A stretch of 64,000 nucleotides of DNA from contig CAVPNL010000001.1 in the NCBI GenBank assembly GCA_963706575.1, forward strand, positions 192,001-256,000, given 5' to 3'. Below, piece by piece: positions 3,549 through 21,880 of this stretch. The notes below the pieces were generated by a model. It was not told the DNA's origin. It searched no databases and saw only the letters and a program-made list of their open reading frames with translations. The first letter of the stretch is position 1, and each line of letters starts with the position of its first letter. The position numbers were made by a program, and so were the translations under genes. The DNA comes from an uncultured delta proteobacterium. Lineage in GTDB: Bacteria; Desulfobacterota; Desulfobacteria; Desulfobacterales; JAHEIW01.

Positions 3549-3622
3549 TTTGGTTAACGGCTTTTGGCCATTGGTTTCTGGCTACTGGCAATCTGCAATC
3601 CGAAATCCGCATTCCGCAATCG
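3549..3622. repeat. Degenerate heptamer tandem repeats
   Basis: TTTGGCC/ATTGGTT/TCTGGCT/ACTGGCA followed by AATCTGC/AATCCGA/AATCCGC/ATTCCGC, in the livG-livF spacer. Confidence 0.7.
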
Positions 3623-3626
3623 ACTC

Positions 3627-4376: not shown

Positions 4377-5377
4377 CACTTGACCTCCACCCAGCGTTCA
4401 AATTGATGGTATTTGCGCTGAATATAGTGGAAAATGCCCTCCGGTACGGCGACCGTAAATACAACCAGAAACAGGCCGTAAAAAACGATTCGAAGCCCGC
4501 CGAGACCACGTAATATTTCTGAAAGCGGCACTAGAATAAAGGCGCCGAGCATTGATCCGGCCAATGTTCCCATACCGCCGACCACTGCCGCGGCAATCGG
4601 CAGAATGGAATAATCCAGCGCGTACACCGGCATGCCCACAAACATATAGACATGGGTCACAAAGGCTCCAGCAAAAGCACCGATTGCACTGGCAATAAAT
4701 AAGGCCTGGGTTTTAAACCAGTAAATATTAATGCCGGCGTTCATGACCGAACGGTCATTGTCGTTGATACCCTTGAGCACCAAACCGTAATCTGAATTCA
4801 TCAGGCGTCGGAATCCAAACAGGGCCGCCAGCAGGGCGGCAATAATGACATACATTTCGACCCATCTGTTCGGAAGGGGATCCAATCCGCTGAGACCTTC
4901 GGTGCCTCCAAAAATACGTGTGGCTTCAATGATTCGGACGAGCATCAGCGGCAGCACCAGGGTGACCATTGAAAAATAGATTCCGCGCAAGCGTAAAACA
5001 GGCAGAAGAAACAGCGTGCAAAGCACCCCCCCAAAAATAGTTGCCAGTGGAAGGGTTACATAGGGGGGCCAACCAAAATAGTGATTCATATTTCCGGCAA
5101 GGTAGGCACCGGTTCCGAAGAAAAGTGCCTGGCCCAGGGAAACCATACCGCTTTGGGCCAGAATATCCCAGCTAATTGCCAGCAGGGCAAAGACGGATAC
5201 GGAAAGTAAAACACGCTGCCAATATTGGCTGAGAAGAATTGACAATAATAATAAACCGAAGATAGGCAGCAGCCGTGGGGCGGATAAATAAAGCATTTCG
5301 CGCCAGGAGGACAGGGCAAATATATCGCTGGATCTGACTTTGATGCCACGGTCTACACGTTCTTTACGCCTTTGCAA
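4376..5377 (-). CDS. ABC transporter permease, LivM-like
   Basis: Multi-TM; SLGQALFFGTGAY, LRLRGIYFSMVT. Confidence 0.9.
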   Translation of the reverse strand: MQRRKERVDRGIKVRSSDIFALSSWREMLYLSAPRLLPIFGLLLLSILLSQYWQRVLLSVSVFALLAISWDILAQSGMVSLGQALFFGTGAYLAGNMNHYFGWPPYVTLPLATIFGGVLCTLFLLPVLRLRGIYFSMVTLVLPLMLVRIIEATRIFGGTEGLSGLDPLPNRWVEMYVIIAALLAALFGFRRLMNSDYGLVLKGINDNDRSVMNAGINIYWFKTQALFIASAIGAFAGAFVTHVYMFVGMPVYALDYSILPIAAAVVGGMGTLAGSMLGAFILVPLSEILRGLGGLRIVFYGLFLVVFTVAVPEGIFHYIQRKYHQFERWVEVK

Positions 5378-5380
5378 CGG

Positions 5381-6253
5381 TCAAATCCTTTCTTCCAATT
5401 CCTTTTGTTCACCAAATAAACCGGATGGCTTAATGACGAGTATGACGAGAATGGCAATTAGCGGCACCAGCATTACCCAGTGGCTTTCCAGATAAGTAAC
5501 CGTGAAGGTTTGTCCGTATCCAATCAAAAAGGAGGCGAGTACCAATCCGCCCGTGGAGCCCAACCCGCCCACAATGCATACCGCCAATGCATTGATCAGA
5601 ACACTGTATCCCTGCTCGACGTTGATTGTTCCCAGGGGCAGCACAAAAATGGCGGCAATTGCCGCGTAAGCACCGCCAAAAGAAACACTGAGCATTGCAA
5701 CCTGATCCGTGTTTATCCCCAGGCTGAGGGCTGTGCGTTCCTCCTGAGCGATTCCTCTGAAGCGCAGGCCGGTACGGGTGTGGTGGGTAAAAAACCAGAT
5801 AAAACCGGCCATGGCAATGCCGATTAGCACGATGATAATCCGCTGTATATCGATAGTCACCTCACCGATGTCAATACTGGCATCGACAAAAACCGGCAGA
5901 GAATATTCAAAGCCGATAAAACCCATATATTTAAAGAGCTCCAGTAAAGCCAGCCCGATCCCGAAGGTGGCGATAACCTCTGATAATACCAATCCCCGAA
6001 TTCGCAGCAGAACAAATCGATACATCAGAGCCCCGGCAATGGCGGTTATGGCAACCGCTGACACAACCGCAAAGAAATAAGGCAGACCGATCGAATTTAA
6101 AAAGACCCAGCATACTAATGCACCCATAATATATAGGGCGCCGTAGGCAAAATTGGCGATCCCGCTGATCCCAAAGGTGAGGTTAAATCCCAGGGCCACC
6201 AAAACCAGTATGATACTGTTTACAAAGCCGTAGACTAAGGTGTGGGCAAACAT
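5381..6253 (-). CDS. ABC transporter permease, LivH-like
   Basis: LVALGFNLTFG...NFAYG, KPSGLFG. Confidence 0.9.
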   Translation of the reverse strand: MFAHTLVYGFVNSIILVLVALGFNLTFGISGIANFAYGALYIMGALVCWVFLNSIGLPYFFAVVSAVAITAIAGALMYRFVLLRIRGLVLSEVIATFGIGLALLELFKYMGFIGFEYSLPVFVDASIDIGEVTIDIQRIIIVLIGIAMAGFIWFFTHHTRTGLRFRGIAQEERTALSLGINTDQVAMLSVSFGGAYAAIAAIFVLPLGTINVEQGYSVLINALAVCIVGGLGSTGGLVLASFLIGYGQTFTVTYLESHWVMLVPLIAILVILVIKPSGLFGEQKELEERI

Positions 6254-6375
6254 GGATAATAATTTACCGTAAGTTTAAATCCTGTGGATCTGCAAAAACA
6301 ATTGGATGCAGCCCAGGGACACCGACTTGTGGCTGCAATGGTTATATAATTGATACTCGCGAGGCCAGAGTTCAG

Positions 6376-6418
6376 AAAAACCCGCCCGCCTTACCTGAGA
6401 TTGCCAAGGCGGGCAGGT
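6376..6418 (-). terminator. Stem-loop with T-run after the binding-protein gene (partial terminator or mRNA stabiliser)
   Basis: Minus strand ACCTGCCCGCCTT...AAGGCGGGCGGGT followed by TTTT. Confidence 0.6.
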
Positions 6419-6467
6419 AGGATTGCATATTTTTTTGTTTTTTGCTTATGCCTTAATAAGGATATTA

Positions 6468-7739
6468 TTATCTTTTGACCCAGGGCGGCAGAACGATTGG
6501 ACCATCAGCCAGGCTTGCAGGATATACTATCTTTCTTTTGCCGTCTTCAGTCCATTGAAAAAAGGCCCCAACCGCGGTTTGCGCCGGGTCGGTGCCGTAA
6601 ATGACCTGATGGCCTGCGTCAAACTTGATCCGGCCCATTACGCCCTGCTTGTCGGTTTTTTCAATTTCGGCTACGATGGCATCCGGGTCCAGTGAACCTG
6701 CTCGTTCGATGGCTTCTTTCAAGATATATACCGATTCATAAGCGGGCGCCGGACCATGGCCGGACTGAATTCCTTTTCCGTAAGCTTTTTTGTACTTATT
6801 GTAAAAGTTTTTGGACGGAGCGTATTTTGCTGCGGGTACGTTACCCAGCTCAAAGGTGGCATTCATCAATCCACCGATTTTGCCCTTAAAGGTCTTCCAG
6901 GCGACTTCACCGGCCATCGGTGAGATAAACCCGGCGATTAGCCCCGGTACCTTGATGCTTTTCCACTGGTTGACAAGGACACCGCTTTCAGGATTATCAA
7001 AACAGGCAAAAATTACGCCGGCTTTCTTTGCTTTGGCTTTCATTAAGGCCGAAGAGAAATCGGAAAATCCGGTGGGAAATTGATCATGACCCACCACTTC
7101 ATAACCTAAAGACGGATAAACCTTTTTCGCCATAGCCCCTGCGGTACCCCGCGCCCAGGCCACATCCTGGTTCATGATATAAACCTTATCAAAACCAAAA
7201 TCCTTTTTCAGCGTCGCCATCGTGCCGCCCAAAAGTTTCGCCCAGTAAATCACATTCATGGAAACTCTGAAGACATATTTGTATTTTTCAGGATCTTTTT
7301 TAATTTTAGCCTCCGTGCCGGGACTCATTGCGATGGTGCCCAGCATGGGCATCTTGTACTTGGCAAAAATATCCATGCCTGCCAGCAAGGCCTCGGAGCG
7401 GAAAGGTCCGACCACAATGGCTGTCGGCTTTTTCTCTAAGATTAGCTTTTCAATCCCCAATAAGGCTTCCGGAACCGGTACACCGGCTGCTGCATCGCGC
7501 AGGTCGGCAGCGACGACCTCGAATGGTCTTTTGGTGCCGCCGACATTAACACCGCCTTTGGCATTAATCTCACCGACTGCCAATTGAACCGCTTTGTGGG
7601 ATTCTTTGCCTTCCAGAAAACCCAAGGAAGTAGGAACACCAATAACAATTGGCTCGGCTGCAAAGACAGCGGGTACGGGTATCGTCCAGGCAAATACAGC
7701 TACCAGCGCAAGACAGAACAGGACTATTTTTCGATTCAT
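6468..7739 (-). CDS. ABC transporter substrate-binding protein, LivK/Peripla_BP_6 family
   Basis: Signal peptide MNRKIVLFCLALVAVFAW...VFA; EINAKGGV; start ATG 7739 after AGGAGG. Confidence 0.9.
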   Translation of the reverse strand: MNRKIVLFCLALVAVFAWTIPVPAVFAAEPIVIGVPTSLGFLEGKESHKAVQLAVGEINAKGGVNVGGTKRPFEVVAADLRDAAAGVPVPEALLGIEKLILEKKPTAIVVGPFRSEALLAGMDIFAKYKMPMLGTIAMSPGTEAKIKKDPEKYKYVFRVSMNVIYWAKLLGGTMATLKKDFGFDKVYIMNQDVAWARGTAGAMAKKVYPSLGYEVVGHDQFPTGFSDFSSALMKAKAKKAGVIFACFDNPESGVLVNQWKSIKVPGLIAGFISPMAGEVAWKTFKGKIGGLMNATFELGNVPAAKYAPSKNFYNKYKKAYGKGIQSGHGPAPAYESVYILKEAIERAGSLDPDAIVAEIEKTDKQGVMGRIKFDAGHQVIYGTDPAQTAVGAFFQWTEDGKRKIVYPASLADGPIVLPPWVKR

Positions 7740-7915
7740 GAGAGGCCTCCTTTTTTTGTCGGCTTCCTCCCGGGTTGTCCGGGAGAAGGCGAGTTGATGC
7801 ATTTGGTTTGAATACGATGCTGCGGGTATCTGCTACCAGGGGGGTGGTGTTGGCAACAACCCGCGCGGTTGTTGGATAAAAAACACCCTTGCTAAGAAGC
7901 AAGTTAACGAATGTG

Positions 7916-7971
7916 AGTAGCTATGAAATAGCTACTGTGTGGTAGCTATATGAACCTTGCCGGGTTGTCAA
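7916..7971 (-). promoter_or_regulatory. Putative promoter/operator of the transporter operon
   Basis: Perfect inverted repeat AGTAGCTAT-GAA-ATAGCTACT (7916-7936), third half-site GTAGCTAT (7942-7949), minus-strand TTGACA (7966-7971). Confidence 0.55.
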
Positions 7972-8131
7972 GGAATTTGTTGATGGCTTATTAGCGATTG
8001 GTGAACTCTATTACCATTCTGAAATCGGCGGTATAGGTGGCAACTGGCTGCTGATGTCTTATTGTCTGTTATGAAGGCCGTAACTTTTTGTTAGTTCATT
8101 TTTAATTTTCGCTCATTATAGGCGTAAAAAA

Positions 8132-8147
8132 GTTCATTATAGTGAAC
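8132..8147. promoter_or_regulatory. Putative IclR operator 1
   Basis: GTTCA-TTATAG-TGAAC. Confidence 0.7.
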
Positions 8148-8218: not shown

Positions 8219-8276
8219 TTGACAAAGCGGCTTTAACTGATAGGATACCAGACTCTAAGCGTTCATATAGATGAAC
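8219..8276 (+). promoter_or_regulatory. Sigma70-like promoter with putative IclR operator 2
   Basis: TTGACA (8219)-N16-TAGGAT, then GTTCA-TATAGA-TGAAC at 8261-8276. Confidence 0.7.
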
Positions 8277-8347: not shown

Positions 8348-8827
8348 ATGATGGATAAGAAAATATTGACGGTTGATCCGGAAAAATGTACGGGCTGCCG
8401 CAATTGTGAACTCGTTTGTTCGGTTATGCATAACGGGGTCAGCAACCCTTCTTTAGCCCGTATTCAGGTTGTCAAATGGGAAGATATCGGCGTTTATATA
8501 CCCATGAGCTGTCAGCAGTGTGAAGATGCGCCTTGCATGGCGGTGTGTCCCAAAGAGGCCATTTACCGCGACGAAGAACTGGAACGCATCCGTATTAACC
8601 ACGAGCTGTGCATCGGCTGCAAGATGTGCGTCGCTGTCTGTCCATTCGGCGCGGCCAAGTGGGATTCGAAGCGCGGCCGTGTGTTCAAGTGCAATCTGTG
8701 TCATGGAGATCCGCAATGCGTGCGCTTCTGCTACACCAAGGCGGTCGATTATTTGGAAGCAGGCAGGCTGAGCACCGATCGCATGCGGCAGGCTGCCGGA
8801 AATTTTGCTAAAGCAACACGCCGTTAA
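8348..8827 (+). CDS. 4Fe-4S multicluster protein (AorA/DmsB-like)
   Basis: Four Cys clusters: CTGCRNCELVC, CQQCEDAPC..VCP, CIGCKMCVAVCP, KCNLC...QCVRFC. Confidence 0.9.
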   Translation: MMDKKILTVDPEKCTGCRNCELVCSVMHNGVSNPSLARIQVVKWEDIGVYIPMSCQQCEDAPCMAVCPKEAIYRDEELERIRINHELCIGCKMCVAVCPFGAAKWDSKRGRVFKCNLCHGDPQCVRFCYTKAVDYLEAGRLSTDRMRQAAGNFAKATRR

Positions 8828-8912
8828 GTACAAAACCCAGTTTACTTTAACTTAAGTTACTTCGAGCTTTAGTTCACTTTAATCACTTTTTGCATTATTG
8901 GAGGTACTCAGT

Positions 8913-9200
8913 TTGAAAATACTGGTAGAATCCCTCGGACTTCCGACACTGTCAAAATTAATCGGCAAAAAAACTGAAATGGAGATGGCTGACGGGACGG
9001 TGGCGGACCTGATTGCGCATATTGTGAGTCGAAGCGGCAAGGAGGCGCGCAAAATCCTGCTGGACCACACCGGGGAACTGGATATGACGATCCAGGTGAT
9101 GCTCAATGAAGAAGGATTTGTGCCAAGAAACGAGTTGGCGCAGCGAGCCCTCAAAGACGGTGATACGGTTAAGATTATGTTGCTCGTGGGTGGCGGATAA
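8913..9200 (+). CDS. MoaD/ThiS family sulfur carrier
   Basis: Ends LKDGDTVKIMLLVGGG; TTG start after GGAGG. Confidence 0.85.
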   Translation: MKILVESLGLPTLSKLIGKKTEMEMADGTVADLIAHIVSRSGKEARKILLDHTGELDMTIQVMLNEEGFVPRNELAQRALKDGDTVKIMLLVGGG

Positions 9201-9217
9201 ATCTTCATACCATGAAG

Positions 9218-9336
9218 GCAAAGGGAATAGCGCATAGCGCATAGTGCATAGAGCATAGCGCATAGGGCAAAGCGTTTTGATTAAGAAAAAGGAGACTCAA
9301 TTTTAACGCTCTGCGCTTTGCGCTTAGCCCTTTGCG
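9218..9336. repeat. Heptamer tandem repeat with an inverted arm
   Basis: About 8 GCATAGC-like units (9218-9273) and complementary CGCTCTG/CGCTTTG/CGCTTAG/CCCTTTG (9307-9336). Confidence 0.85.
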
Positions 9337-9341
9337 ATATA

Positions 9342-9752
9342 ATGACTCAAGTTATGGACAATAAGAAAATGCCATATTTCCGGGTAAATGAGAACTGTAA
9401 CGGGTGTCTGGCCTGTGTGGAAAATTGCCCGGCAGCGGCATTGGATTCTGTTGATCAAAACGACGGACGGACCCTTAAACACAATATGACCAAGTGCGCC
9501 CGCTGCGGTCAATGCTGGCGGGTCTGCCCCCAGGAAGCCATCGAGTTTCAGCATCTTTTAGCCGGCGAGTGGGATGATGTCATTACGCTTGACCTGATTC
9601 ATTGTCGGGTTTGCGGGGAACCGCTGTATTCAGCGGCTTTTCTTCAAAAAATGGAAGGCCAGCTGGATTTAGCCGGTGAAGCACTCTGCCCGAAGCATCG
9701 GCAAAGTGACGCCGCCTCAAAGCTGCTGCATTCAAAATCGGGGGCCAAATGA
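9342..9752 (+). CDS. 2x[4Fe-4S] ferredoxin-like protein with extra C-terminal Cys motif
   Basis: CNGCLACVENCP, CARCGQCWRVCP, CRVCG...LCPKH; start uncertain. Confidence 0.85.
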   Translation: MTQVMDNKKMPYFRVNENCNGCLACVENCPAAALDSVDQNDGRTLKHNMTKCARCGQCWRVCPQEAIEFQHLLAGEWDDVITLDLIHCRVCGEPLYSAAFLQKMEGQLDLAGEALCPKHRQSDAASKLLHSKSGAK

Positions 9753-10447
9753 TTGTCGGAGATCTAAAACCGCTAGAAGAAATCATTACTGCTATTAAAG
9801 ACTTCAAGCAGGTGCTCGTTCTGGGATGCGGCAGCTGCGTGACGGTTTGTCTTTCCGGCGGAGAAAAAGAGGCCGAGCAGCTCAGCCGCGATCTTTCTCG
9901 CATGCGGCACTACCAGGGCCCCCCGCCGAAATTTGTGGTCGGCTCAATTCTCAGGCAGTGTGAAAAGGACCTGGTAAACGAATACCAGGAAATACCCCCT
10001 GGAACCGATGCCGTGTTATCGCTGGCCTGCGGTGCCGGTGTTCAAACCCTGGCGGATGCCTATGAGCCCCTGCCGGTGATCCCGGCCCTGAATACGACAT
10101 TCCTGGGAGCGTCGGACAAACCGGGGACATGGACTGAAAAATGCAAAGGCTGCGGAGACTGTATTCTGATTCATACCGGGGGTATCTGCCCGATTGCGCG
10201 CTGCGCCAAGAGCCTTTTCAACGGCCCCTGCGGCGGCTCCAAAGGGGGCTATTGTGAAGTCGGCCAGGGTACTCCCTGCGCATGGACCCAGATTGTTGCC
10301 CGGCTCAAGAAAATGAACAAGCTGCACTGTTATGAGGAAATTCGCACAACCAAAAATTGGAAACTGGGTGGCGCATCCGGGGTCCGAAGGCGCGTGCGAA
10401 CCGGTCTGGCTGATGGTTCAAACACGAACCAAATTAAAAATAGCTAA
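9749..10447 (+). CDS. Methylenetetrahydrofolate reductase C-terminal domain protein (MetV-like)
   Basis: GCGSCVTVC, RQCE, LACGAGVQ, CKGCGDC...GGICPIARCAKSLFNGPCGGS...C...CAW. Confidence 0.85.
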   Translation: MIVGDLKPLEEIITAIKDFKQVLVLGCGSCVTVCLSGGEKEAEQLSRDLSRMRHYQGPPPKFVVGSILRQCEKDLVNEYQEIPPGTDAVLSLACGAGVQTLADAYEPLPVIPALNTTFLGASDKPGTWTEKCKGCGDCILIHTGGICPIARCAKSLFNGPCGGSKGGYCEVGQGTPCAWTQIVARLKKMNKLHCYEEIRTTKNWKLGGASGVRRRVRTGLADGSNTNQIKNS

Positions 10448-10490
10448 TGTGTTGCCTTTAAAAAAGTTTTCTGGTTTTTCGTTTCAGCTG

Positions 10491-10601
10491 GTTCAGGGTT
10501 CAAGGTTCAAAGGTTCAAGCGTTGTAGTGCTTGATTATCAATTTTGAATTTCTGGACTCTTAACCCCGAACGCTGAACCTCTGAACCTTTGAGCCTTTGA
10601 A
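10491..10601. repeat. GGTTCA-type 7/8-mer repeats with an inverted arm
   Basis: GTTCAGG/GTTCAAG/GTTCAAAG... and AACGCTG/AACCTCTG/AACCTTTG/AGCCTTTG abutting the eutA-like start. Confidence 0.8.
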
Positions 10602-10602
10602 T

Positions 10603-12027
10603 ATGGAAATAAACGAAATTGACATACTCTCCGTCGGGGTTGATGTCGGCAGCTCAACCAGCCATCTGGTTTTTTCAAATCTGTTTCTGAAAAAGGATGA
10701 ACGCTCAGAGACACGACGCTTCAAGATTCGGGAAAGAAACATACTGTATGAAGGACGAATCACCCATACGCCTTTACTTGACGATAAAACAATAGATATC
10801 GATAGTTTAACTGAATTTTTTAAAGAAGAATATAAGCGTGCGGGGATTGATCCGACCGATATTCAAACCGGCGCAGTAATTGTCACCGGCGAGTCCGCTC
10901 GCAAAAAAAACGCCCGCCAAATTGCCGAGGCACTTTCCAGTGATGCCGGAAAATTTGTGGCGGCAACGGCCGGGCCCAATTTCGAAGGCATACTGGCCGC
11001 ATTGGGTTCCGGTGCGGCGGCCCGCTCAAAGGATCATAACAAGACCATAATATCCTGTGACATTGGTGGCGGTACGTCAAACATCGCCGCCATCATAAAC
11101 GGTCAGACCGTCTCAACCAGCTGCATCTCTGTCGGTGGGCGGTTGTTGGGCGTCAGTTCCGAAGGGAAAATTTGGCGCATTGACAAACCGGCCCGACAAA
11201 CTTTTCAACATCTGGGATTGAATTACAAAATCGGGGATCGAATTTCGCAGCAGGATATCAAAAGAATCAGTGCCGCTTTTGCCGAAGTGTTATTCGAGGT
11301 CATTACCGGCCCCGCAAAGTCAGCGTTAGCCCGACAACTCATGCTGACCGATGATTTGCAATTTCCCGACCGCATTGACGAATATTCATTTTCCGGGGGG
11401 ATTGCGGAATTGATGTACGGGGGTCTCAACCATTATGATGATATCGGGCAAATTCTGGCCGATGAAATAAATTTGCTAACTCCCGGATTGACTGCTGCGG
11501 TTGTGGAGCCCGCCAATAAAATCAGAGCGACTGTCATTGGGGCCGGCGCCTATTCATTATCAATTTCCGGCTCTTCGTGTTTTAGGGATGATCAAATTGC
11601 GTTTCCAATAAGAAATGTGCCGGTCATCCGGGTGGACATCGATCGATCAAAATTGAGTTTTGACCATATTCTGGAGCAGATAAACATCTCCTTTCAACGA
11701 TTTGATTTAAAAGAAGGCGAGGAGATCGTCGCGCTATACTTTAAAGACCCGGTAATGGCGTCTTATCCCCAGCTGGAATTGTTTGCCCGATCAATTGAAG
11801 CGGCTTTGGACGATTCAATCGAGAAGCGTATACCGATTATTTTGATCTTTGAAACAGATATTGCCTGCGGCGTCGGCAACGTCATCCGTCGTGAAACCCG
11901 GTTAAAAACCAATTTGCTGACTCTAGATGAGCTAACGTTGAAAGAAGGCGATTGGGTCGATATTGGTGAACCTCTGGTGGCCGGCCAGGTATTTCCGGTT
12001 ACCGTAAAATCACTTGTCTTCCATTGA
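10603..12027 (+). CDS. eutA: Ethanolamine ammonia-lyase reactivase EutA-like ATPase
   Basis: SVGVDVGSSTS, GAVIVTGESARKKNA, KFVAATAGP, DIGGGTSN, RATVIGAG, PVTVKSLVF. Confidence 0.85.
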   Translation: MEINEIDILSVGVDVGSSTSHLVFSNLFLKKDERSETRRFKIRERNILYEGRITHTPLLDDKTIDIDSLTEFFKEEYKRAGIDPTDIQTGAVIVTGESARKKNARQIAEALSSDAGKFVAATAGPNFEGILAALGSGAAARSKDHNKTIISCDIGGGTSNIAAIINGQTVSTSCISVGGRLLGVSSEGKIWRIDKPARQTFQHLGLNYKIGDRISQQDIKRISAAFAEVLFEVITGPAKSALARQLMLTDDLQFPDRIDEYSFSGGIAELMYGGLNHYDDIGQILADEINLLTPGLTAAVVEPANKIRATVIGAGAYSLSISGSSCFRDDQIAFPIRNVPVIRVDIDRSKLSFDHILEQINISFQRFDLKEGEEIVALYFKDPVMASYPQLELFARSIEAALDDSIEKRIPIILIFETDIACGVGNVIRRETRLKTNLLTLDELTLKEGDWVDIGEPLVAGQVFPVTVKSLVFH

Positions 12028-12063
12028 AGTTAGGATTTCTTCAGGATGGAGCTTGTTTACGTA

Positions 12064-12846
12064 TCAGGATGTCTGGTGATTGTTGAGGAGCTGTTTTTGA
12101 ATCCGCTGGCTGATGGTCCTGGCGGCCTTTTGGGTCTGGCCGGTAAGGGTTTTCATCTTTTTTTCATCAAGACTGGCTTTGAATCCGACAATCCAAATGG
12201 CCGACCGTAATTGTCCCAGGCCGATTAACGGCGATGCCACCGCCCGGACACCCAGGATATATTCTTCATCATCGACGGCGAATCCTTTTTCTCTGACCTG
12301 CTTCAGCTCCTGGAAATAGGCCGCTGTATCGACGATCGAATTATCCGTGAAGCGGGGCAGCCCTTTTGATTTGACTATTTTGCGGGCCTGTTCCTCATCC
12401 ATTGATGCCAGGAAAACTTTGCCCACAGCGCCGGCCAGCATAGGTATGGTGGTGCCGATCGGGGCCGTAATTTTAAGATCCTGTCTGGACTCGACAATAT
12501 CCAGCACGGTCACATGATCCCAGTTGAGGATGCCCAGAAAAACCGATGTCCGGGTTTTTTCCATCAGTTCTTCCATAACCGGCCGTGCCGAAGTTTTGAG
12601 ATCAACCTGGGAATAAGCCGAGCGGCCGATTTCAAACAGGGTAAAACCCAGTTTATATTTTTTGGTCAGCGGATTCCGCATAACGGCTCCCAGCTCTTCC
12701 AGGGTCGATGTCATGCCGTGGACCGTGCTCTTGGCCATCTTGAGTTTTTTGGCCAGTTCGCTCACGCCCAAACCTTTTTGGGATGAAGAAATGGCACTGA
12801 GGATGCCAAAAGCCTTTTTTACGGAAGGTGCACTATATTTTTTCAT
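12064..12846 (-). CDS. IclR family transcriptional regulator
   Basis: SVKKAFGIL...GVSELAKKLKMAKSTVH HTH; AVGKVFLA; GFAVDDEE..GVRAVASP. Confidence 0.93.
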   Translation of the reverse strand: MKKYSAPSVKKAFGILSAISSSQKGLGVSELAKKLKMAKSTVHGMTSTLEELGAVMRNPLTKKYKLGFTLFEIGRSAYSQVDLKTSARPVMEELMEKTRTSVFLGILNWDHVTVLDIVESRQDLKITAPIGTTIPMLAGAVGKVFLASMDEEQARKIVKSKGLPRFTDNSIVDTAAYFQELKQVREKGFAVDDEEYILGVRAVASPLIGLGQLRSAIWIVGFKASLDEKKMKTLTGQTQKAARTISQRIQKQLLNNHQTS

Positions 12847-12911
12847 TGTTCTCACTCAAATTCATTTTTTCTAAGGATACATGCGGGCATCAATATTTGT
12901 CAACATAATTT

Positions 12912-12927
12912 GTTCATCTTAATGAAC
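12912..12927. promoter_or_regulatory. Putative IclR operator 3
   Basis: GTTCA-TCTTAA-TGAAC next to minus-strand TTGACA (12898-12903) upstream of iclR. Confidence 0.7.
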
Positions 12928-13042
12928 GATCAGTTTCTAAGTTCAGCTAACACAGGCTGCATGCATAGCATTTTTTGATTTGCAACTAATACCCAATAGC
13001 AAAAGATAAATTGAAAAAATAGCGAAGAGGTTATATTTTTAC

Positions 13043-13104
13043 TTGATCAAAAAATTGTGCTGTGGTATCAAGGGTTGTCAGATAGAATGTTCATGATGAT
13101 GAAC
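13043..13104 (+). promoter_or_regulatory. Promoter with putative IclR operator 4
   Basis: TTGATC-N17-TATCAA, then GTTCA-TGATGA-TGAAC at 13089-13104. Confidence 0.7.
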
Positions 13105-13249
13105 CTTATTTATAACCCGCTGAGCGCTTACCCGGGATCGTTTAATTTCAAAGCGCAAAGGCTTTATTAACGCAAAATAAGTATGCGCGGCGGCATGCCT
13201 GCCGGCATTAAACAAAAAGAATCAGATAGAAAACACAAAGGAGAGGAAA

Positions 13250-13510
13250 ATGGCGACCGAAAAAAAAGGCCTTTCAACAGCCGAAAATCTGCGAAAGACG
13301 CGGACCTACGGTAAGTTTCGATGCCACAATCCCAGCTGCATGGAGAGGATTGAGCCGGAAAAGGGCAGCAAAACCGCCAAATGCCCGACATGTGGAATGG
13401 AATACCGGGTCCACTGGATCAATCCCAATTTGCCCCGTATTCGAGGACCGGTCTGGGAGGTCAATAAAAAATTGGTGGAAGCAAAATTAAAAGAAAAGGG
13501 GGTAACCTAA
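13250..13510 (+). CDS. Small zinc-ribbon/rubredoxin-like protein
   Basis: CHNPSC...CPTCG; strong RBS (AGGAGAGG); stop 1 bp before the AOR start. Confidence 0.75.
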   Translation: MATEKKGLSTAENLRKTRTYGKFRCHNPSCMERIEPEKGSKTAKCPTCGMEYRVHWINPNLPRIRGPVWEVNKKLVEAKLKEKGVT

Positions 13511-13511
13511 T

Positions 13512-15452
13512 ATGGCGTTAAACAGAAAGATCGCATACATTGATCTCACCACCGGCGACATCCAGACCAAACCGATTCCGCTTGAGATCAGGAAAAAGTT
13601 CCTGGGAGGCCGCGGCTTGGATGCCTATCTGCTTTATAATCATACGAAAAAGGGCTGTGATCCGCTGGGCCCTCATAATACGCTGTTGATCAGCGGCGGT
13701 ATCCTGACGGCCACCTGTGCTTCCGCTACTGCCAGAACGCATGTCATGGCAAAATCACCGCTGACCGGAATGCTGGGCAGCACAAATATGGGCGGCTTTT
13801 TCGCGCCCGAGCTGGCCTGGGCGGGCTTTCACCATCTGGTCATCAAAGGTAAAGCCAAACACCCCGTTTATATTTCTATTCATAACGGCGAGATCGAGAT
13901 TCGAGACGCCCGCGACATCTGGGGACAATCCGTGACCGACACCCAGTGGACCATTCGGGAAGACCTGGGGGATGAGGAGGTCAAAAGTTGCGTATGCGGG
14001 CCGGCCGGAGAGAATCTGGTTGCTTTTGCCAACGTTATGACGGGCATTAAAAATGCCGGTGGACGGACGGGTATGGGCTGTGTCATGGGTTCCAAGAATC
14101 TAAAGGCTGTGGCTGCCCGCGGGACCATGGATATTGAAATTGCCCATCCGACTGAAGCTCTGGAATACAACAAGCGCTTCATCGACCAGATCGTCAGCTC
14201 CAAGGTGAATCAAACTCAGGGGGTGCTGGGAACTCCGTTTATCTGGGGTGCGACGAACTGCTTCGGAGGTGTCCGCACCCGGAATTTTCAATACAATCAG
14301 TGTGAATATGCCGATGACATCGAACCCGAGCGTTTCGATGAAATTGCCGAAGAGACTATGGGACCTCATCATATGACCGGATGTTTCGGTTGCCAGGTGC
14401 ATTGCCGGGCTCAGTATAAAATTCCGACAGGCCCTTTGGCTGGAAAATACGATGAAGGGCCTGAATATACCTCCCTGGGGGCTTTTGGGGCCGAGACCGA
14501 AACACCCCGCGCCGAGACGGTGCTGACGGGTAATCATCTGGTCAATCAGTACGGAATGGATAATCTTGAAACCGGCAGTCTCATTTCCTGGGCAATGGAG
14601 CTATACGAACTGGGTATCATCACCGACAAAGAAACCGATGGGCTGGATCTGAGTTTTGGAAACGATGCGGCAGTCATCGAAATGATTGAGCGGATCTGCT
14701 ACCGCAAGGGTTGGCTGGCAGATGCACTTGCCGACGGCGGTATTCCGGCTTCGAAAAAGATCGGGAAAAGCTCCTTTGATTATCTCGTTCAGGTCAAAGG
14801 TATGAATAATTTGAATTCGGATGAACGGCCGACTCCGGCGCTGGCGCTCAATGTTGCCACTGCATCCAGAGGATCGGACCATTTGAGGAGCAGACCGGCC
14901 ATCGACTTGTATCATTTGCCGGAAGAGGTTTTGAGAAAAATTTACAGCAACCCGGTTGCCTATGACGGGCCGTTGAGCTCCGAGCACAGCGAATATGTGG
15001 GCAAACCCTGGCAGGTTTTCTGGCAGGAAAACTGTTTCATGGGCGTCGATTGCCTCGGTATCTGTAAATATCATACAACATTCCTGGGGCCGACCTTGCC
15101 CAATTTCGAAGACTGGACAAAAGTACTTTACTATAATACCGGTCTTGAAATGACACCCGAGGAGATCTGGGAGGTCGCCTTGCGCGGCAACATGATCGAA
15201 AGGCTCTTCAACCTGAGAGAAGGGCTGACGCGAAACGATCTTGAAAAAGGCGATATGCTGAATCATCGCTATTTCGATGAGCCCTGCAAAAGAGGCGCCA
15301 TCGATGTGGTCGGCCTGACGATCGATAAGCAGAAATTCGTTAAGATGGTTGATGAATTTTACGCCCATAAGGGACTCGATCGCAACGGTGTTCCTAAACC
15401 GAAAACCTTAAAAAACCTCGGCCTGGAAAATGAGCCGTCCCATTTACTATAG
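13512..15452 (+). CDS. Tungsten-dependent aldehyde:ferredoxin oxidoreductase family catalytic subunit
   Basis: FLGGRG, KSPLTG, GPAGEN, GRTGMGCVMGSKNLKA, CFGCQVHC, EGPEY, RGSDH, DCLGIC. Confidence 0.93.
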   Translation: MALNRKIAYIDLTTGDIQTKPIPLEIRKKFLGGRGLDAYLLYNHTKKGCDPLGPHNTLLISGGILTATCASATARTHVMAKSPLTGMLGSTNMGGFFAPELAWAGFHHLVIKGKAKHPVYISIHNGEIEIRDARDIWGQSVTDTQWTIREDLGDEEVKSCVCGPAGENLVAFANVMTGIKNAGGRTGMGCVMGSKNLKAVAARGTMDIEIAHPTEALEYNKRFIDQIVSSKVNQTQGVLGTPFIWGATNCFGGVRTRNFQYNQCEYADDIEPERFDEIAEETMGPHHMTGCFGCQVHCRAQYKIPTGPLAGKYDEGPEYTSLGAFGAETETPRAETVLTGNHLVNQYGMDNLETGSLISWAMELYELGIITDKETDGLDLSFGNDAAVIEMIERICYRKGWLADALADGGIPASKKIGKSSFDYLVQVKGMNNLNSDERPTPALALNVATASRGSDHLRSRPAIDLYHLPEEVLRKIYSNPVAYDGPLSSEHSEYVGKPWQVFWQENCFMGVDCLGICKYHTTFLGPTLPNFEDWTKVLYYNTGLEMTPEEIWEVALRGNMIERLFNLREGLTRNDLEKGDMLNHRYFDEPCKRGAIDVVGLTIDKQKFVKMVDEFYAHKGLDRNGVPKPKTLKNLGLENEPSHLL

Positions 15453-15462
15453 GAGGAATTAG

Positions 15463-15960
15463 ATGTCTAAAGTACTATACGTAGATCACCAGAAGTGCAC
15501 AGGCTGTCAACTATGTGAGCTTGTGTGCGCTGTGTCGCATGATGGAATATCCAATCCCGCCAGAAGCCGGATCCGGGTGGTGAAATGGGAGGCTGAAGGC
15601 CTGTACATCCCGATGACATGCCAGCAATGCCAGGATGCGCCCTGTCTGAATGTTTGCCCGGTCAAGGCCATCTCGCGCAACGAGGAATCGACCCGGGTGA
15701 CCGTTGATTATGATGTCTGCATCGGCTGTCGTTCGTGTGTTGGCGTATGTCCTTTCGGGGCCATGAGTTTTAATCCCACCGACAGACAGGTCTTCAAGTG
15801 CGACCATTGTGACGGCGATCCGCAGTGTGTCCGGTTCTGTGAAGAAAAGGCTGTGGATTTTATCGAGGCGGACAAGGTGAGCATCAACAAGCGGCGCAAA
15901 GCGGCGGAACGGGTATCGGCCGCGAGCAAGGATGCCGCAGCCCTGGAATCTCAGCTCTAG
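15463..15960 (+). CDS. 4Fe-4S multicluster protein (AOR small subunit-like)
   Basis: Same four-cluster Cys pattern as 8348-8827; close paralog. Confidence 0.9.
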   Translation: MSKVLYVDHQKCTGCQLCELVCAVSHDGISNPARSRIRVVKWEAEGLYIPMTCQQCQDAPCLNVCPVKAISRNEESTRVTVDYDVCIGCRSCVGVCPFGAMSFNPTDRQVFKCDHCDGDPQCVRFCEEKAVDFIEADKVSINKRRKAAERVSAASKDAAALESQL

Positions 15961-15999
15961 CTGACACCTTTCAGCTTACGGTTTTATTTTGGGTAAAAG

Positions 16000-16039
16000 A
16001 TAAAGGTTCCCGGTTAACCCGGGAGCCTTTATTTTTTTT
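16000..16039 (+). terminator. Rho-independent terminator
   Basis: ATAAAGGTTCCCGG-TTAAC-CCGGGAGCCTTTAT followed by a T-run. Confidence 0.8.
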
Positions 16040-16056
16040 GATGAAGAAATGAAACA

Positions 16057-17481
16057 ATGGCAGTTTCCAGTTCAACATATCGCTCTCCCAAAAAAATGGC
16101 CATCATTACAAGCTATTTCAAAGGTGAGACATACGGGCTCCTGGGCCCCCAGATGGCGGCCACCATCATTGAAGACCATGGCGCCTGTGAATGTATCGTC
16201 ATTGCCGTAACCCGCGAAGACGAAAAAGCCACCCTTAAAAGGGTGTTGGCGGATTATTTTGCGGCCCAAAGGTCCATCATCGGCTTTTCTGCCTTAAGCG
16301 GTCGGGAAGATCTTTTCTCGCTGGCCGGTGAATTGAAAGCGGAGGGGGCTATCACGATTCTTGCGGGACCCCAGGCCAACGTTGACTTTTCAGGAGAAAG
16401 GGGCTGGCGCAATCATCCCCATCGCTTCAAGGGTTTTTGGGGATGCTTCGACTTCGGCCTGCAGGGGCCGGCGGAACAGGTGGTTGCGCTGTTACACCGT
16501 CTGGATAAAAATGATGGATTGCTGATCCCCGGTCTGTTATATCTGAACAAGGAAGGTATCGTCAGACAAAATCCTCCTAAGGAATGGGACCACAACTATC
16601 TGGGAAAGGTGCGCTGGGATAATATCTACCGGCTCACCAAAGATGGGGTTGCGCCTTTAAATGTCGATACGGGTCAGGTTCTGCAGCACATCGGCTGTCC
16701 CCATGCCGCCCGAATGACCGAACCGCAGATCGATTATCCAGCTTCAATACGCCAAGGCCAGGGACAAAAGATCAAGCTCAATCTAAAGGGTTGCAGTTTC
16801 TGTGATGTGGCAGCTGACAAAGGATTTCACGGAAAGCTGGATACGGAAACGGTCATCTCTCAAATCCAATGCCTGCCTGAAACACCGCAAGGCAGGAAGA
16901 TTGCGTTTGAACTCATTAATGAAAATCCACTGTCCGCGCTTTCCGGATTGCTGCAAGAATTGCATTCGCGCAACATCAGAATTTCACAGATCAATCTCAC
17001 CTTAAGGGCGGATGGGCTTCTATCAGGGCTGCAGCATTTAAAAGCAGCCTTGAAGGTGGCGGGTAAACTGGGAATTTATATACTGCTGAGCTCAATCGGG
17101 TTTGAGTCATTTGATAACCGCATCCTGCGAAATCTGAACAAAGGCTTGAGTGTCGAAACTAATCTAAAGGCGATTCGTCTCATCCGGCAGCTTAAAGAAG
17201 AATTTGGAGAGGCATTCGGGTATTCCAGCAGGGAAGGGGCCAATCACGGGTTTATCCACCCCACCGCCTGGGACACCGAAGAAACCGCAGCTGAAATCCA
17301 GAAAAATATTTATCTCTATGGGCTGCAAAACGATATCCTGCCGCCGCACAGCACCCCTCTTATAATCCATCACGCTTCGGGCCTGGCAGACTGGATCAGA
17401 GAAATTGAAGGCCGGGAGCGGCTCTGGTTCAAGCGTTACGGCACGGTTATCGGCTGGTGGGGTTCAGCGCACCGCATTTGA
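16057..17481 (+). CDS. B12-binding-domain radical SAM-like protein with non-canonical cluster motif
   Basis: N-terminal LLGPQMAA...IIGFS...ILAGPQA; GCP-(insert)-GCSFC; GFESFDNRILRNLNKG. Confidence 0.7.
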   Translation: MAVSSSTYRSPKKMAIITSYFKGETYGLLGPQMAATIIEDHGACECIVIAVTREDEKATLKRVLADYFAAQRSIIGFSALSGREDLFSLAGELKAEGAITILAGPQANVDFSGERGWRNHPHRFKGFWGCFDFGLQGPAEQVVALLHRLDKNDGLLIPGLLYLNKEGIVRQNPPKEWDHNYLGKVRWDNIYRLTKDGVAPLNVDTGQVLQHIGCPHAARMTEPQIDYPASIRQGQGQKIKLNLKGCSFCDVAADKGFHGKLDTETVISQIQCLPETPQGRKIAFELINENPLSALSGLLQELHSRNIRISQINLTLRADGLLSGLQHLKAALKVAGKLGIYILLSSIGFESFDNRILRNLNKGLSVETNLKAIRLIRQLKEEFGEAFGYSSREGANHGFIHPTAWDTEETAAEIQKNIYLYGLQNDILPPHSTPLIIHHASGLADWIREIEGRERLWFKRYGTVIGWWGSAHRI

Positions 17482-19483: not shown

Positions 19484-19924
19484 GGTCACCTCCTTTGCAA
19501 ACTGAAGACAAACCTTCCATGGGTCTAACTTCCCTGAAAGCCCAGCTGGCGGGAAAGGGAGCCAGCCGCCTCTCTTAAGGTCGGTTCAATGATTTTTTCT
19601 TTTTCTGAACTGAATTGTACGACAGGCACCGGAATGTTTATCGACGCCGCCACTGTCCGATGCAGATCAAATACCGGCGCTGCATGGTAATTATATGCTC
19701 ATCATTATTCGCATATAAAGGTGCTCTTTCACCGTTTTTGTCAACCCCAAAAACGCTTGTACACTATTTTAGTTGAGAATTGGAATCTGCAAACCGCTTG
19801 ACGAAAAAGAATATAATTGATTTAACATTGACGCTTGCACATCATACAAATGATACAGAACATAAGCTATAAAAAGGATCAGTTTGAAATTGCGGGATGA
19901 ATTAAAATAGAGGGGGGGAGTTTG

Positions 19925-21232
19925 ATGCAAAAAAAATACGATGCCATCATTATCGGTTCAGGCGTTATTGGGTGCTGTGTGGCCTTCGAACTGGCCAATC
20001 GGGGGTATAAGACACTGAGTGTGGACAAGCTCGGCGACGCCGGAATGGGTTCCACGAGCGGGTCATGCGCCATCATACGTTTTCATTATTCCACCACCGA
20101 AGGCGTGGCGCTGGCAAGAGAAGGTTATTACTACTGGCTGGACTGGCCCACCTATCTCGGGGTAAGGGACCCCGACGGCATGGTCACATACCGCAATACC
20201 GGGGCCCTGGTCATCAAAACGCCTGTCAATAAAAATCTCAGCCGTGTGAAAGCTGTTTTGGATGAATTTGGCATCGGCTATTTGGAACTGGAGCCGGAGG
20301 AGATCAGTCGCTACCTGCCCAACGTTAACCTGGCCAGCTACTTTCCCCAAAAATGGATAGACGATCCGGAATTCGGTCAGCCCACCGCGGAGAAGATTCC
20401 CGGTGCCCTCTGGATCCCCGAGTCCGGTTATATCTCAGACCCCAAACTTTCTGCGCATAACGTCCAGGTGGCGGCGCAGGCCAAAAAGGCTGAATTTTTA
20501 TACGGGGCAGAAGTTTCTGAGATATTGAAGGTAAAGGGGCGCGCCGCCGGCGTCAAGCTAAGCGACGGCAGCGAAATCGAAGCGCCGGTTGTGGTGAATG
20601 TGGCGGGTCCCCACTCCTTTTTAATCAATCGAATGGCCGGTGTAGAAGAATCGATGAAGATCAAAACACGTCCGATGAAGCAGGAAGTCGCCCATGTGCC
20701 GGCGCCCGGGGGAATGAATTGGGAGCGCGATGGTTACATGCTGTCTGACGGAGACATCGGTTGCTACTCGCGCCCGGAGGTGGGTAATCACATTTTGATC
20801 GGCAGTGAAGATCCGGAATGCGATCCGCTCCTGTGGGTGGACGACCCGGACAATTACGACACCAACTTTACCGATCAATTCAAGTGTATGGTCATGCGCG
20901 AAGGCATGCGGGTCAACGACCTGGCCATCCCCAACCAGTATCAGGGCGTGGTCGATCTCTATGACTGCAGTGATGACTGGATTCCCATTTACGACAAATC
21001 CGATCTGCCTGGATTTTACATGGCCATCGGCACCAGCGGCAATCAGTACAAAAACGCCCCGGTTGCGGGGGCGATGATGGCTGCACTGATCGATGCCTGC
21101 GAGAAGGGGCTCGATCACGATGCAGATCCGTTCCAGTTTTATATGAAATATACGCGGCGCAATCTAAACGTGGGGGTTTTCAGCCGGAATCGCGAAATCA
21201 ATAAAGATTCCAGTTTTTCGGTCATCGGCTAA
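19925..21232 (+). CDS. FAD-dependent oxidoreductase (DAO/sarcosine oxidase beta family)
   Basis: IIGSGVIG, GSTSGSCAIIR, VVNVAGPHS, GTSGNQYKNAP. Confidence 0.88.
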   Translation: MQKKYDAIIIGSGVIGCCVAFELANRGYKTLSVDKLGDAGMGSTSGSCAIIRFHYSTTEGVALAREGYYYWLDWPTYLGVRDPDGMVTYRNTGALVIKTPVNKNLSRVKAVLDEFGIGYLELEPEEISRYLPNVNLASYFPQKWIDDPEFGQPTAEKIPGALWIPESGYISDPKLSAHNVQVAAQAKKAEFLYGAEVSEILKVKGRAAGVKLSDGSEIEAPVVVNVAGPHSFLINRMAGVEESMKIKTRPMKQEVAHVPAPGGMNWERDGYMLSDGDIGCYSRPEVGNHILIGSEDPECDPLLWVDDPDNYDTNFTDQFKCMVMREGMRVNDLAIPNQYQGVVDLYDCSDDWIPIYDKSDLPGFYMAIGTSGNQYKNAPVAGAMMAALIDACEKGLDHDADPFQFYMKYTRRNLNVGVFSRNREINKDSSFSVIG

Positions 21233-21307
21233 AGAGCGCAACCGCTTACCATGCAAGTAATCATCAGTTGTTACGATAAGTAAAAAAAAATATGGAGGTT
21301 ATATCAA

Positions 21308-21880
21308 ATGGATAAGATCAATTTGGGATCAACTATCCCCGCATACCCCATGCCTGTTTCCCTTGTGGGAGCCTATGTGGACGGCAAGCCGAATTTTATG
21401 GCCGTGGCATGGTTTACCATGGCCAGTTATAAACCACCAAGGATTGCCATTACCCTCGGGAAGGGCCATTACACCAATCCTGGAATTAAAGAGAATAAAA
21501 CCTTCAGCGTTTGCCTGCCTTCGGAGGATATGGTGGAAATGACTGATTATTGCGGAATTGTATCGGGTAAAAAAACCGATAAATCGGAGATTTTTGATCT
21601 TTTTTATGGTGAGCTGAAAACAGCCCCGTTGATCAGAGACTGTCCTTTATGCATGGAATGTAAGCTGGTGGAAATTGTGGAGAGTGCTTCGAATGAAATC
21701 TTCATTGGCGAAATCATGGGAACCTACACAGAAGATAGATTTCTGACTGATGGTAAATTGGATTTTAGAAAAATGAAGCCCTTGATACTCTCACAACCGG
21801 ACACCTCTTATTGGCGCCTTGGGGAACAGATGGCCAGGGCCTGGAGTATCGGTAAAAAATACAAAGCCAAACGCAAGTAG
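21308..21880 (+). CDS. Flavin reductase/flavoredoxin family protein
   Basis: PMPVSLVG, NFMAVAW, DYCGIVSG, APLIRDCPLCMEC. Confidence 0.88.
   Translation: MDKINLGSTIPAYPMPVSLVGAYVDGKPNFMAVAWFTMASYKPPRIAITLGKGHYTNPGIKENKTFSVCLPSEDMVEMTDYCGIVSGKKTDKSEIFDLFYGELKTAPLIRDCPLCMECKLVEIVESASNEIFIGEIMGTYTEDRFLTDGKLDFRKMKPLILSQPDTSYWRLGEQMARAWSIGKKYKAKRK

Follow-up and report, generated by a model that had tools for sequence, protein, structure and literature searches.

A putative IclR-controlled regulon of two operons around a non-canonical tungsten oxidoreductase in an uncultured member of the Desulfobacterota

In the 2026 classification of tungsten oxidoreductases (WORs), 92 clades are distinguished, and only five of them have a member whose physiological role is defined (PMC13328260). 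Thr243, Glu313, Tyr427, and His448 are described as conserved second-shell residues of the aldehyde-oxidizing aldehyde ferredoxin oxidoreductases (AORs), and Glu313 and Tyr427 have been given roles in the mechanism proposed for these enzymes (PMC12096430, PMC13328260). Genes encoding MoaD are known to occur next to AOR genes, and this association has been read as a sign of cofactor maturation (PMC6365974, PMC1779556); the MoaD-like accessory protein was named WorX in PMC13328260. According to PMC5821096, EutA carries out the ATP-dependent removal of the damaged cofactor from ethanolamine lyase. Relatives of all these proteins are encoded together at positions 8348–17481 of the stretch of 64,000 nucleotides studied here (called the window below), which belongs to the genome (5.67 Mb, 91.8% complete) of an uncultured delta proteobacterium of the phylum Desulfobacterota.

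We read this locus, with a probability of roughly 0.55, as a single regulon of two operons controlled by an IclR-family regulator, which builds and serves a non-canonical tungsten oxidoreductase. Its predicted catalytic core, consisting of a zinc-ribbon protein, the WOR large subunit (WorL), and a WorS-type small subunit (13250–15960), was shown by sequence comparison to belong to a distinct, monophyletic branch of the WORs. Based on the open reading frames (ORFs) and on Pfam and NCBIfam matches, the locus comprises two runs of genes on the forward strand, split by the IclR gene on the reverse strand. The first run carries the genes for an Fe-S protein (FeS1), MoaD, a ferredoxin (Fdx), a MetV-like protein, and a EutA-like protein, in that order, and the second those for the zinc-ribbon protein, WorL, a second Fe-S protein (FeS2), and a protein resembling the radical S-adenosylmethionine (SAM) enzymes. 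The features are as follows:

8132–8147 and 8261–8276: candidate operator palindromes upstream of the FeS1 gene, flanking a promoter-like site at 8219–8246 (+ strand)
8348–8827, + strand: FeS1, an AorA/WorS/HydN-like protein with four predicted [4Fe-4S] clusters (Pfam, NCBIfam), paralog of FeS2
8898–9200, + strand: MoaD/ThiS sulfur carrier, WorX/AorD-like (PF02597, C-terminal GGG)
9318–9752, + strand: Fdx, with two predicted [4Fe-4S] clusters and a C-terminal CxxC...C..H (Cys/His) tail
9749–10447, + strand: MetV-like protein (DUF5981, 1.7e-33), with no adjoining MetF gene
10597–12027, + strand: EutA-like ASKHA ATPase of the WOR-linked branch (PF06277, 2e-139)
12064–12855, − strand: IclR-family regulator (HTH_IclR 1.8e-13, IclR_C 3.2e-37), divergent from the WOR operon
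12912–12927 and 13089–13104: candidate operator palindromes between the IclR and zinc-ribbon genes, with promoter-like sites in both directions
13250–13510, + strand: zinc-ribbon protein of 86 amino acids (aa), with four Cys and an RGPVW motif
13512–15452, + strand: WorL, predicted catalytic subunit of the tungsten AOR family (AFOR_N 6.4e-72, AFOR_C 1.3e-95)
15463–15960, + strand: FeS2, WorS/AorA-type subunit with four predicted [4Fe-4S] clusters (9mqx_E 1.4e-42, 8c0z_C 7.2e-39)
16057/16096–17481 (likely start 16096), + strand: radical-SAM-like protein with a predicted class-B two-domain fold and a CX31CX2C motif

All the genes named in an earlier reading based on the sequence alone (the sequence-only reading) were found to be present; the IclR gene lying between the two operons was absent from its list. 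The zinc-ribbon stop codon lies 1 nucleotide (nt) ahead of the WOR start, FeS2 starts 10 nt past the WOR stop codon, and the Fdx stop and the MetV start overlap as ATGA. Two further ORFs at 10332–10547 (71 aa) and 12046–12210 (54 aa), which overlap the MetV and IclR genes, respectively, showed no family match and are probably not genes. The whole locus is set in an island of anaerobic aromatic-degradation genes.

The two operons share a palindrome, GTTCA-N6-TGAAC, of which four copies (at 8132, 8261, 12912, and 13089) are present in the window versus 0.33 expected, a number reached in none of 100 shuffles. Each promoter region holds two of them, with promoter-like hexamers between or beside the sites. 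The motif matches nine times genome-wide, and paired sites of the form GTTCAT..(A/G)TGAAC are present at the window locus only, which bears out the claim of the sequence-only reading that the genes of the module share an operator. The motif is also present, mostly in pairs, in 24 of the 33 loci of the EutA clade L001–L033, versus none of the eight loci with a distant EutA (L047–L054); here and below, L, G, C, and f numbers are our own labels for loci, genomes, contigs, and families. In these relatives, it precedes the zinc-ribbon/WOR operon, the FeS1/MoaD operon, a membrane-ferredoxin gene, and the IclR gene; paired sites occupy the equivalent place upstream of FeS1 in L003, L007–L009, L028, and L031, for example, and the motif recurs beside the IclR and zinc-ribbon genes in other families of the phylum. 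Of the 15 loci with at least 6 kb on both sides, 13 contain the IclR gene, which adjoins the WOR branch in other families too. The IclR gene and the paired palindromes were thus shown to travel with the zinc-ribbon, WorL, and WorS core. The protein carries both HTH_IclR and IclR_C, and the palindromes, to which it is predicted to bind, are located at its own promoter and those of its putative targets. A noncoding stretch of about 64 nt (7918–7981), located between the gene for an ABC-transporter binding protein and FeS1, shows 94% identity in L028 and 84% in L003, which is far above that of the neighboring intergenic DNA; it contains TAGCTA/ATAGCT repeats, and may serve as a further binding site for a regulator or encode a small RNA.

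WorL passes the AFOR_N and AFOR_C cut-offs, and its nearest matches in the PDB by sequence are the AOR of P. furiosus (PfAOR, 1aor; 3.3e-85), 9mqx_D (7.1e-84), and 8c0z_A (1.3e-70), followed more weakly by the BamB structure 4z3w (7.7e-56). Residues C291, C294, C298, and C518, which align with the [4Fe-4S] ligands C288, C291, C295, and C494 of PfAOR, are invariant in 16 sequences. When WorL is aligned with 1aor, the second-shell Thr and His are seen to be kept, and Glu313 and Tyr427 are replaced by Thr320 and Ser436, so that two of the four residues typical of aldehyde-oxidizing AORs sensu stricto are changed. The Glu313 to Thr substitution occurs in all 16 sequences compared (that of the window plus 15 orthologs, two of which are copies of a second paralog) and in all 19 further branch members from other families, down to 52% identity; Tyr427 is replaced by Ser across these branch members, except in two second-paralog copies (Thr and Ile). 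Taking the branch as a whole, Ser is seen at this position in all but three of the members examined, where it is Thr or Ile. The Glu is kept in 12 of the 15 other AOR paralogs of the window genome, a comparison for which 16 of the 18 AFOR_C matches were used and the other two, fragments of one split gene, were left out. As far as can be judged from these alignments, such an active site speaks against ordinary aldehyde oxidation and, since two residues central to the mechanism proposed for AORs are changed, the WOR branch probably catalyzes a different reaction.

The phylogeny that the sequence-only reading had proposed as a check places the WOR branch in a single monophyletic group (27 rows, SH-aLRT 100, in a quick tree with long branches), nearest to the BamB-like paralogs of the same genome, this last position having weak support. 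The branch was detected in 49 of the 401 Desulfobacterota genomes sampled (E up to 1e-150). All 20 loci compared also contain a zinc-ribbon gene, which is located directly upstream of the WOR gene in the 17 members with at least 63% identity and at a distance of 2.5 to 5 kb in the three remotest members. Across 21 zinc-ribbon sequences, neither the four Cys nor the RGPVW motif varies. A literature search on zinc ribbons and AOR yielded only PMC1779556, which deals with the linkage between MoaD and AOR. FeS2, which adjoins WorL and has four predicted [4Fe-4S] clusters, corresponds to the small subunit of Class II WORs.

Other members of the family were also noted. The window genome contains 18 AFOR_C matches, corresponding to about 17 AOR-family genes, among them BamB-like genes at C8:162061, C3:311544, and C15:77556, and a split-looking AOR gene at C1:113555–114731. 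The WOR ortholog G044:C31:8753–10651 contains an in-frame TAA, which may reflect a broken gene or a sequencing error. In family f25, a lineage without a linked EutA, genes of the UPF0261 family (Tm-1/MarK-like, ATP-binding; L170:10995–12221 and L171:7529–8776), which encode a different ATP-binding protein beside the WOR, directly adjoin the zinc-ribbon/WOR pair; UPF0261 genes are also present in the window, at 23114–24325 and 40283–41491.

The proteins encoded around the core include several candidate electron carriers. FeS1 and FeS2 show 55% identity, and their 16 Cys are invariant in 17 aligned sequences. FeS1 also precedes Fdx and MetV in L123, L144, and L148, where no second WOR is present; L003, L018, L094, and L131 do contain a second WOR. 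Since no remnant of a second WOR was found upstream of FeS1 in the window, that FeS1 is a mere leftover of a lost WOR operon is one possibility. Homology was detected between Fdx and the C-terminal half of a 335-aa membrane ferredoxin of the relatives, in which this ferredoxin type is fused to a multi-helix membrane domain (hhalign 98.6%); Fdx also gave a match with the RamA model TIGR04270, in its Fe-S domain (6.3e-08). The N-terminal half of this membrane ferredoxin was also considered as a MetV-like domain, and this assignment was rejected (hhalign 68%). In 35 of the 91 loci of the EutA clade, EutA is immediately preceded by the MetV-like gene, with gaps ranging from −18 to 716 nt; the MetV-like protein has no PDB relative detectable by sequence. 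Since the four MTHFR matches of the genome are all on other contigs (two on C14, one on C4, and one on C13), MetV does occur locally without MetF, as the sequence-only reading had stated. The additional idea that electrons leave via MetV and the ferredoxins is plausible in view of the Fe-S proteins and MetV present.

The MoaD protein scores 32.7 bits with PF02597 (cut-off 22.5) and ends in LLVGGG, as befits a ThiS-family member with a terminal Gly-Gly; MoaA, MoeA, and MobB genes neighbor the WOR locus in some relatives. The sets of partners found with the core are diverse: FeS1, Fdx, and MetV in the window, L123, L144, and L148; the 335-aa membrane ferredoxin in other relatives; NrfD and an FeS protein, with ThiF and MoaD, in L158–L162; a LutB-like LUD/Fe-S protein and a CCG-domain protein in L163–L169 and L177; a Pyr_redox_2 protein of the AorC kind in L172, L174, and L175; and HdrA/HdrC/GltD-like proteins in L023 and L045. 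The candidate electron partners of the same WOR core have therefore been swapped between lineages, as these neighborhoods show.

The EutA-like protein is a full-length member of PF06277 (2e-139, residues 10–476) with intact ASKHA ATP-binding motifs. It scores below every NCBIfam EutA equivalog cut-off (401.8 bits at best, versus 598), and no Fe-S Cys motif was found in it: the three Cys are scattered, and some members have Ser at two of these positions. The window genome, at its completeness of 91.8%, yielded no EutB, which agrees with the claim that EutA is present here without EutBC. No PDB relative of the EutA-like protein was detected by sequence. EutA relatives of any kind (E up to 1e-20) occur in seven of the 401 genomes, and are located beside the WOR in three of them (G000, G140, and G201, with 66–100% identity). 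The contexts of the distant EutAs include EutBC (L053 and L054), cupin proteins (L049–L052), and other genes (L047 and L048).

A set of 91 loci carrying a EutA with at least 60% identity was obtained from public genome and metagenome contigs. A WOR is present in 47 of them, at a distance of up to 6.9 kb (median 1.4 kb), and all 44 loci without a WOR end at a contig edge on at least one side. All 15 loci with at least 6 kb on both sides contain the WOR, the zinc ribbon, and FeS2, accompanied, in addition to IclR (13 loci), by Fdx in 11, MetV in nine, MoaD in six, FeS1 in six, and the radical-SAM-like gene in five; the check on gene neighborhoods suggested by the sequence-only reading thus shows that the genes form one conserved module across genomes. 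The gene preceding EutA is MetV in 35 of the 91 loci, FeS2 in 16, and IclR in 15, and on the opposite strand, the membrane ferredoxin in three and the zinc ribbon in two; EutA is preceded by the contig end in 13 loci and by nothing recognized in seven. EutA follows FeS2 in L045 and L046 too. The linkage between EutA and WOR is therefore kept through at least four gene orders or strand arrangements.

The WOR-linked EutAs form a single clade (SH-aLRT 99). Its sister group consists of proteins of 670–830 aa with an N-terminal extension of 200 aa, and no WOR occurs in their contexts; among the relatives with 46–59% identity, many of which have this extension, no WOR was found nearby. The extension of the long relatives carries a CxxC...HH motif without any Pfam match (P0121–P0129; L079, L081, and L113), and some of their genes are duplicated in tandem, in low-GC surroundings that resemble archaeal DNA (Ras-like GTPase, EMG1). 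EutA relatives with 35–40% identity adjoin cupin proteins; in L049–L052 (G291 and G124), there are up to four EutA paralogs per genome, each beside a cupin-domain protein of 360–410 aa. These cupin-linked proteins constitute another branch of the EutAs. Our literature search yielded no paper linking EutA or the reactivation of ethanolamine ammonia-lyase with aldehyde ferredoxin oxidoreductase or tungsten oxidoreductase, and one unrelated paper.

The last gene had been described in the sequence-only reading as an atypical B12-radical SAM gene. The Radical_SAM Pfam match is below threshold (23.9–24.0 bits versus 29.5) and occurs in 36 of the 37 members (best 3e-06), and none of the 37 gave a match with the B12-binding family PF02310. 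The Cys motif, C201-x31-C233-x2-C236 (CX31CX2C) and not the canonical CX3CX2C, is invariant in the 37 members as well as in 29 sequences, and is kept down to 37% identity. About 1,548 relatives were detected, and wherever a source names them, the name is "hypothetical protein". A structure model built from a more diverse alignment (predicted local distance difference test, pLDDT, 89.1; predicted template-modeling score, pTM, 0.88) replaced that based on a shallow alignment (pLDDT 56.8). Over its whole length, the model matches cobalamin-dependent radical SAM enzymes (Foldseek E-value 3e-12), namely, OxsB (Z 24.0, root-mean-square deviation 3.6 Å, 381 residues), MgmA (Z 22.8), CysS (21.7), and TsrM (19.5), with AprD4 (21.0) and MiaB (18.3), neither of which is known to use cobalamin, close behind. 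No PDB match was found by sequence or family profile, and hhalign gave a probability of 6% against one canonical B12-radical SAM protein (L017:6614–8122). These fold matches support a fold of the B12-radical SAM class; of the earlier label, it is therefore the cobalamin-type fold that stands, the "B12" part being based on the fold and accompanied by no B12-binding Pfam match.

The distribution of the radical-SAM-like gene follows that of the WOR, and not that of EutA. It is present in 25 of the 401 genomes, 24 of which also carry the WOR (G324 is the exception), and in 11 genomes, which belong to several families, no more than 4 kb separates it from the WOR; 22 of the 25 genomes have no WOR-linked EutA, and no copy of the gene was detected in G201, a 95% complete genome with both EutA and WOR. 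No paper linking aldehyde ferredoxin oxidoreductase, radical SAM, and IclR was found. The ortholog G092:C9:30650–32008 contains an in-frame TGA, possibly owing to a broken gene, a sequencing error, or a recoded codon. An FAD-dependent oxidoreductase of the DAO family follows the radical-SAM-like gene in L027, L028, and L099; the DAO-family gene of the window (19922–21880) lies beyond an AMP-ligase gene on the opposite strand, is followed by a flavin reductase, and has no operator ahead of it.

Under the reading that we favor, IclR would keep the two operons repressed and release them on binding a small effector molecule, probably the substrate or its product. Electrons would pass between the tungsten center and the cell via WorS and then FeS1, the zinc-tailed ferredoxin, and MetV, a role which may be filled in the relatives by the membrane-anchored ferredoxin or by NrfD+FeS, LutAB-like, HdrA/C-like, or AorC-like proteins, while MoaD would feed sulfur into the synthesis of the tungsten cofactor. 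The EutA-like ATPase would use ATP to assist the enzyme complex; EutA frees ethanolamine lyase of its damaged cofactor with ATP, and by analogy, the most likely role would be the loading of the cofactor or the reactivation of the tungsten enzyme. The radical-SAM-like protein with its predicted class-B fold would assist the WOR of this branch specifically, as a maturase or as a partner in the pathway, and would not be the client of EutA. In a tentative extension of this scheme, which we regard as doubtful, the EutA-like protein would be the first example of an ATP-driven factor dedicated to a tungsten enzyme. It would either swap or load the tungsten cofactor of a damaged WOR, as a "tungstoenzyme reactivase", or inject ATP-energized, low-potential electrons together with the zinc-tailed Fdx and MetV, enabling a WOR with a rebuilt active site to carry out a reduction beyond the reach of ordinary AORs; the radical-SAM-like protein would then install a modification of the enzyme or its cofactor specific to this branch.

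Several points weigh against the reading as a single regulon serving the WOR. The linked EutA is present in only three of the 49 sampled genomes carrying the WOR branch, which means that the enzyme works without it in most lineages; in L012, EutA has no WOR in the 1.6 kb upstream or the 6 kb downstream, and in L017, none in the 10 kb downstream. We know of no such helper ATPase for any tungsten enzyme, and the role of the EutA-like protein is drawn from analogy. The radical-SAM-like gene is located on a different contig from the WOR in six f56 and f67 genomes, and these six neighborhoods (L178–L183) show no common theme. In addition, the trees are quick trees with long branches, and related genomes are non-independent samples. 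The link of EutA to the WOR is strong, yet EutA is an add-on gained in one sub-branch only.

Of the other explanations, one builds on the sequence-only reading, in which a radical step makes an aldehyde that the WOR oxidizes, with electrons passed on via MetV and the ferredoxins; the B12-type radical SAM enzyme would carry out this step, and EutA would reactivate or load the corrinoid enzyme. The only role that has been described for EutA is cobalamin-enzyme repair (PMC5821096), the last gene has the predicted fold of cobalamin-dependent radical SAM enzymes (OxsB Z 24.0, MgmA 22.8), and the EutA-like and radical-SAM-like genes are neighbors in the window and in L003, L010, L016, L023, L027, L028, and L033. 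These points are nevertheless opposed by the distribution of the genes (five of the 15 loci with at least 6 kb on both sides, 22 of 25 genomes without a linked EutA, and the gene not found in G201), by the lack of any B12-binding Pfam match in the 37 members, with AprD4 and MiaB scoring nearly as high (Z 21.0 and 18.3), and by the active site of the WOR, in which two of four residues, Glu313 and Tyr427, are gone; this scheme thus seems improbable to us. An ATP-driven injection of low-potential electrons into the tungsten center, following the same logic as RamA/RACo, would make the EutA-like protein, the zinc-tailed Fdx, and MetV a split reductive activase for a difficult reduction, of an acid to an aldehyde or another one. 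This would fit with the MetV and EutA genes overlapping or abutting in several loci (gaps down to −18 nt), with MetV lying upstream in 35 of 91, with the ATGA overlap between Fdx and MetV, and with the match between Fdx and the RamA-model Fe-S domain (TIGR04270, 6.3e-08), and AOR enzymes are described in PMC6365974 and PMC9295118 as reducing acids only with very low-potential donors. No conserved Fe-S motif is seen, however, in the EutA-like protein, whose Cys residues are three in number and scattered, with Ser at two of these positions in some members; the protein gave no match with the RamA-type ATPase models, and loci of the L023/L045 type contain EutA without this ferredoxin or MetV. To our knowledge, activase-type electron injection has never been shown for the EutA family, which also counts against this explanation, and we hold it to be unlikely, if somewhat less so than the previous one.

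It might also be argued that EutA, MetV, Fdx, and the radical-SAM-like gene are located near the WOR through shared ancestry alone and have separate functions, since all the EutA-linked loci come from one part of the Desulfobacterota, the gene order is common to related genomes, and 46 of the 49 genomes carrying the WOR have no linked EutA. The linkage has nevertheless outlasted at least four gene orders or strand arrangements and is kept in all 15 loci with at least 6 kb on both sides, both operons share operators, and the EutA relatives outside the WOR-linked clade show no link with the WOR. Of the explanations weighed here, this is the least probable.

With regard to the substrate, the effector of the IclR regulator should provide a pointer. 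A LivK-type ABC transporter and an AMP-forming ligase (window 1073–7802; also L007, L009, L028, and L110) are divergent from the FeS1 operon, and the LivK-type binding-protein gene lies beside FeS1 here and in 14 of the 91 loci of the EutA clade; these genes possibly constitute an uptake and activation system for the substrate of the WOR. In family f21, genes for a fused TRAP transporter (DctM) and an Iso_dh-family (isocitrate/isopropylmalate-dehydrogenase) protein are located beside IclR (L158:2599–5632 and L176:5540–8563), and provide a lead toward a dicarboxylate-type substrate. The WOR branch is common in the phylum (49 of 401 sampled genomes), and further handles on it are the obligate zinc-ribbon subunit, the new radical SAM family, and, for one sub-branch, the ATPase, whose family is known only from the repair of a B12 enzyme. 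If this ATPase does serve the tungsten enzyme, the scope of the "reactivases" would be wider, and it would be the first accessory factor for the upkeep of a tungsten enzyme.

Compared with the systems described so far, the locus combines familiar components with several features of its own. The MetV-like protein shares the DUF5981 domain with the MetV of the MetVF methylene-tetrahydrofolate reductase of acetogens; it differs in that no MetF gene adjoins it and that its gene overlaps that of the ferredoxin and often abuts EutA. BamBC, the tungsten module of class II benzoyl-CoA reductase (4z3w), belongs to the same family as WorL, and the window locus lies in an aromatic-degradation island; WorL, however, matches BamB more weakly and in part (7.7e-56 over residues 8–425), its residues at the positions compared differ from those of the genome's BamB-like paralogs, and there are no BamDEFGHI genes at the window locus. 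According to the model, the radical-SAM-like protein has the same two-domain fold over its whole length as the class B radical SAM enzymes OxsB, MgmA, CysS, TsrM, and TokK, with CX31CX2C in place of CX3CX2C and no B12-binding match. The EutA-like protein resembles EutA (PF06277) in being full-length and keeping the ASKHA motifs, and differs from it in its sub-equivalog score, its tungsten-enzyme neighbor, and the fact that no EutB was found in the genome; it shows 26% identity with the EutBC-linked copy in L054 and forms a clade of its own, far apart from it. The main text of the paper on "Class II" WORs (PMC13328260) contains no mention of EutA, ethanolamine, radical SAM, or MoaD. The closest counterparts of the core are AorAB(C)(DE) of Aromatoleum aromaticum (8c0z) and WorSL of WorABCSL (9mqx), which likewise have a large AFOR subunit and a four-cluster small subunit; a MoaD-like accessory gene is a further shared feature (PMC6365974). 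The window locus differs from these systems in having a dedicated IclR regulon and no AorC or WorABC, and in carrying Thr in place of Glu313, Ser in place of Tyr427, and an obligate zinc-ribbon partner, to which it adds the EutA-like ATPase, MetV, and the radical SAM protein with its predicted class-B fold.

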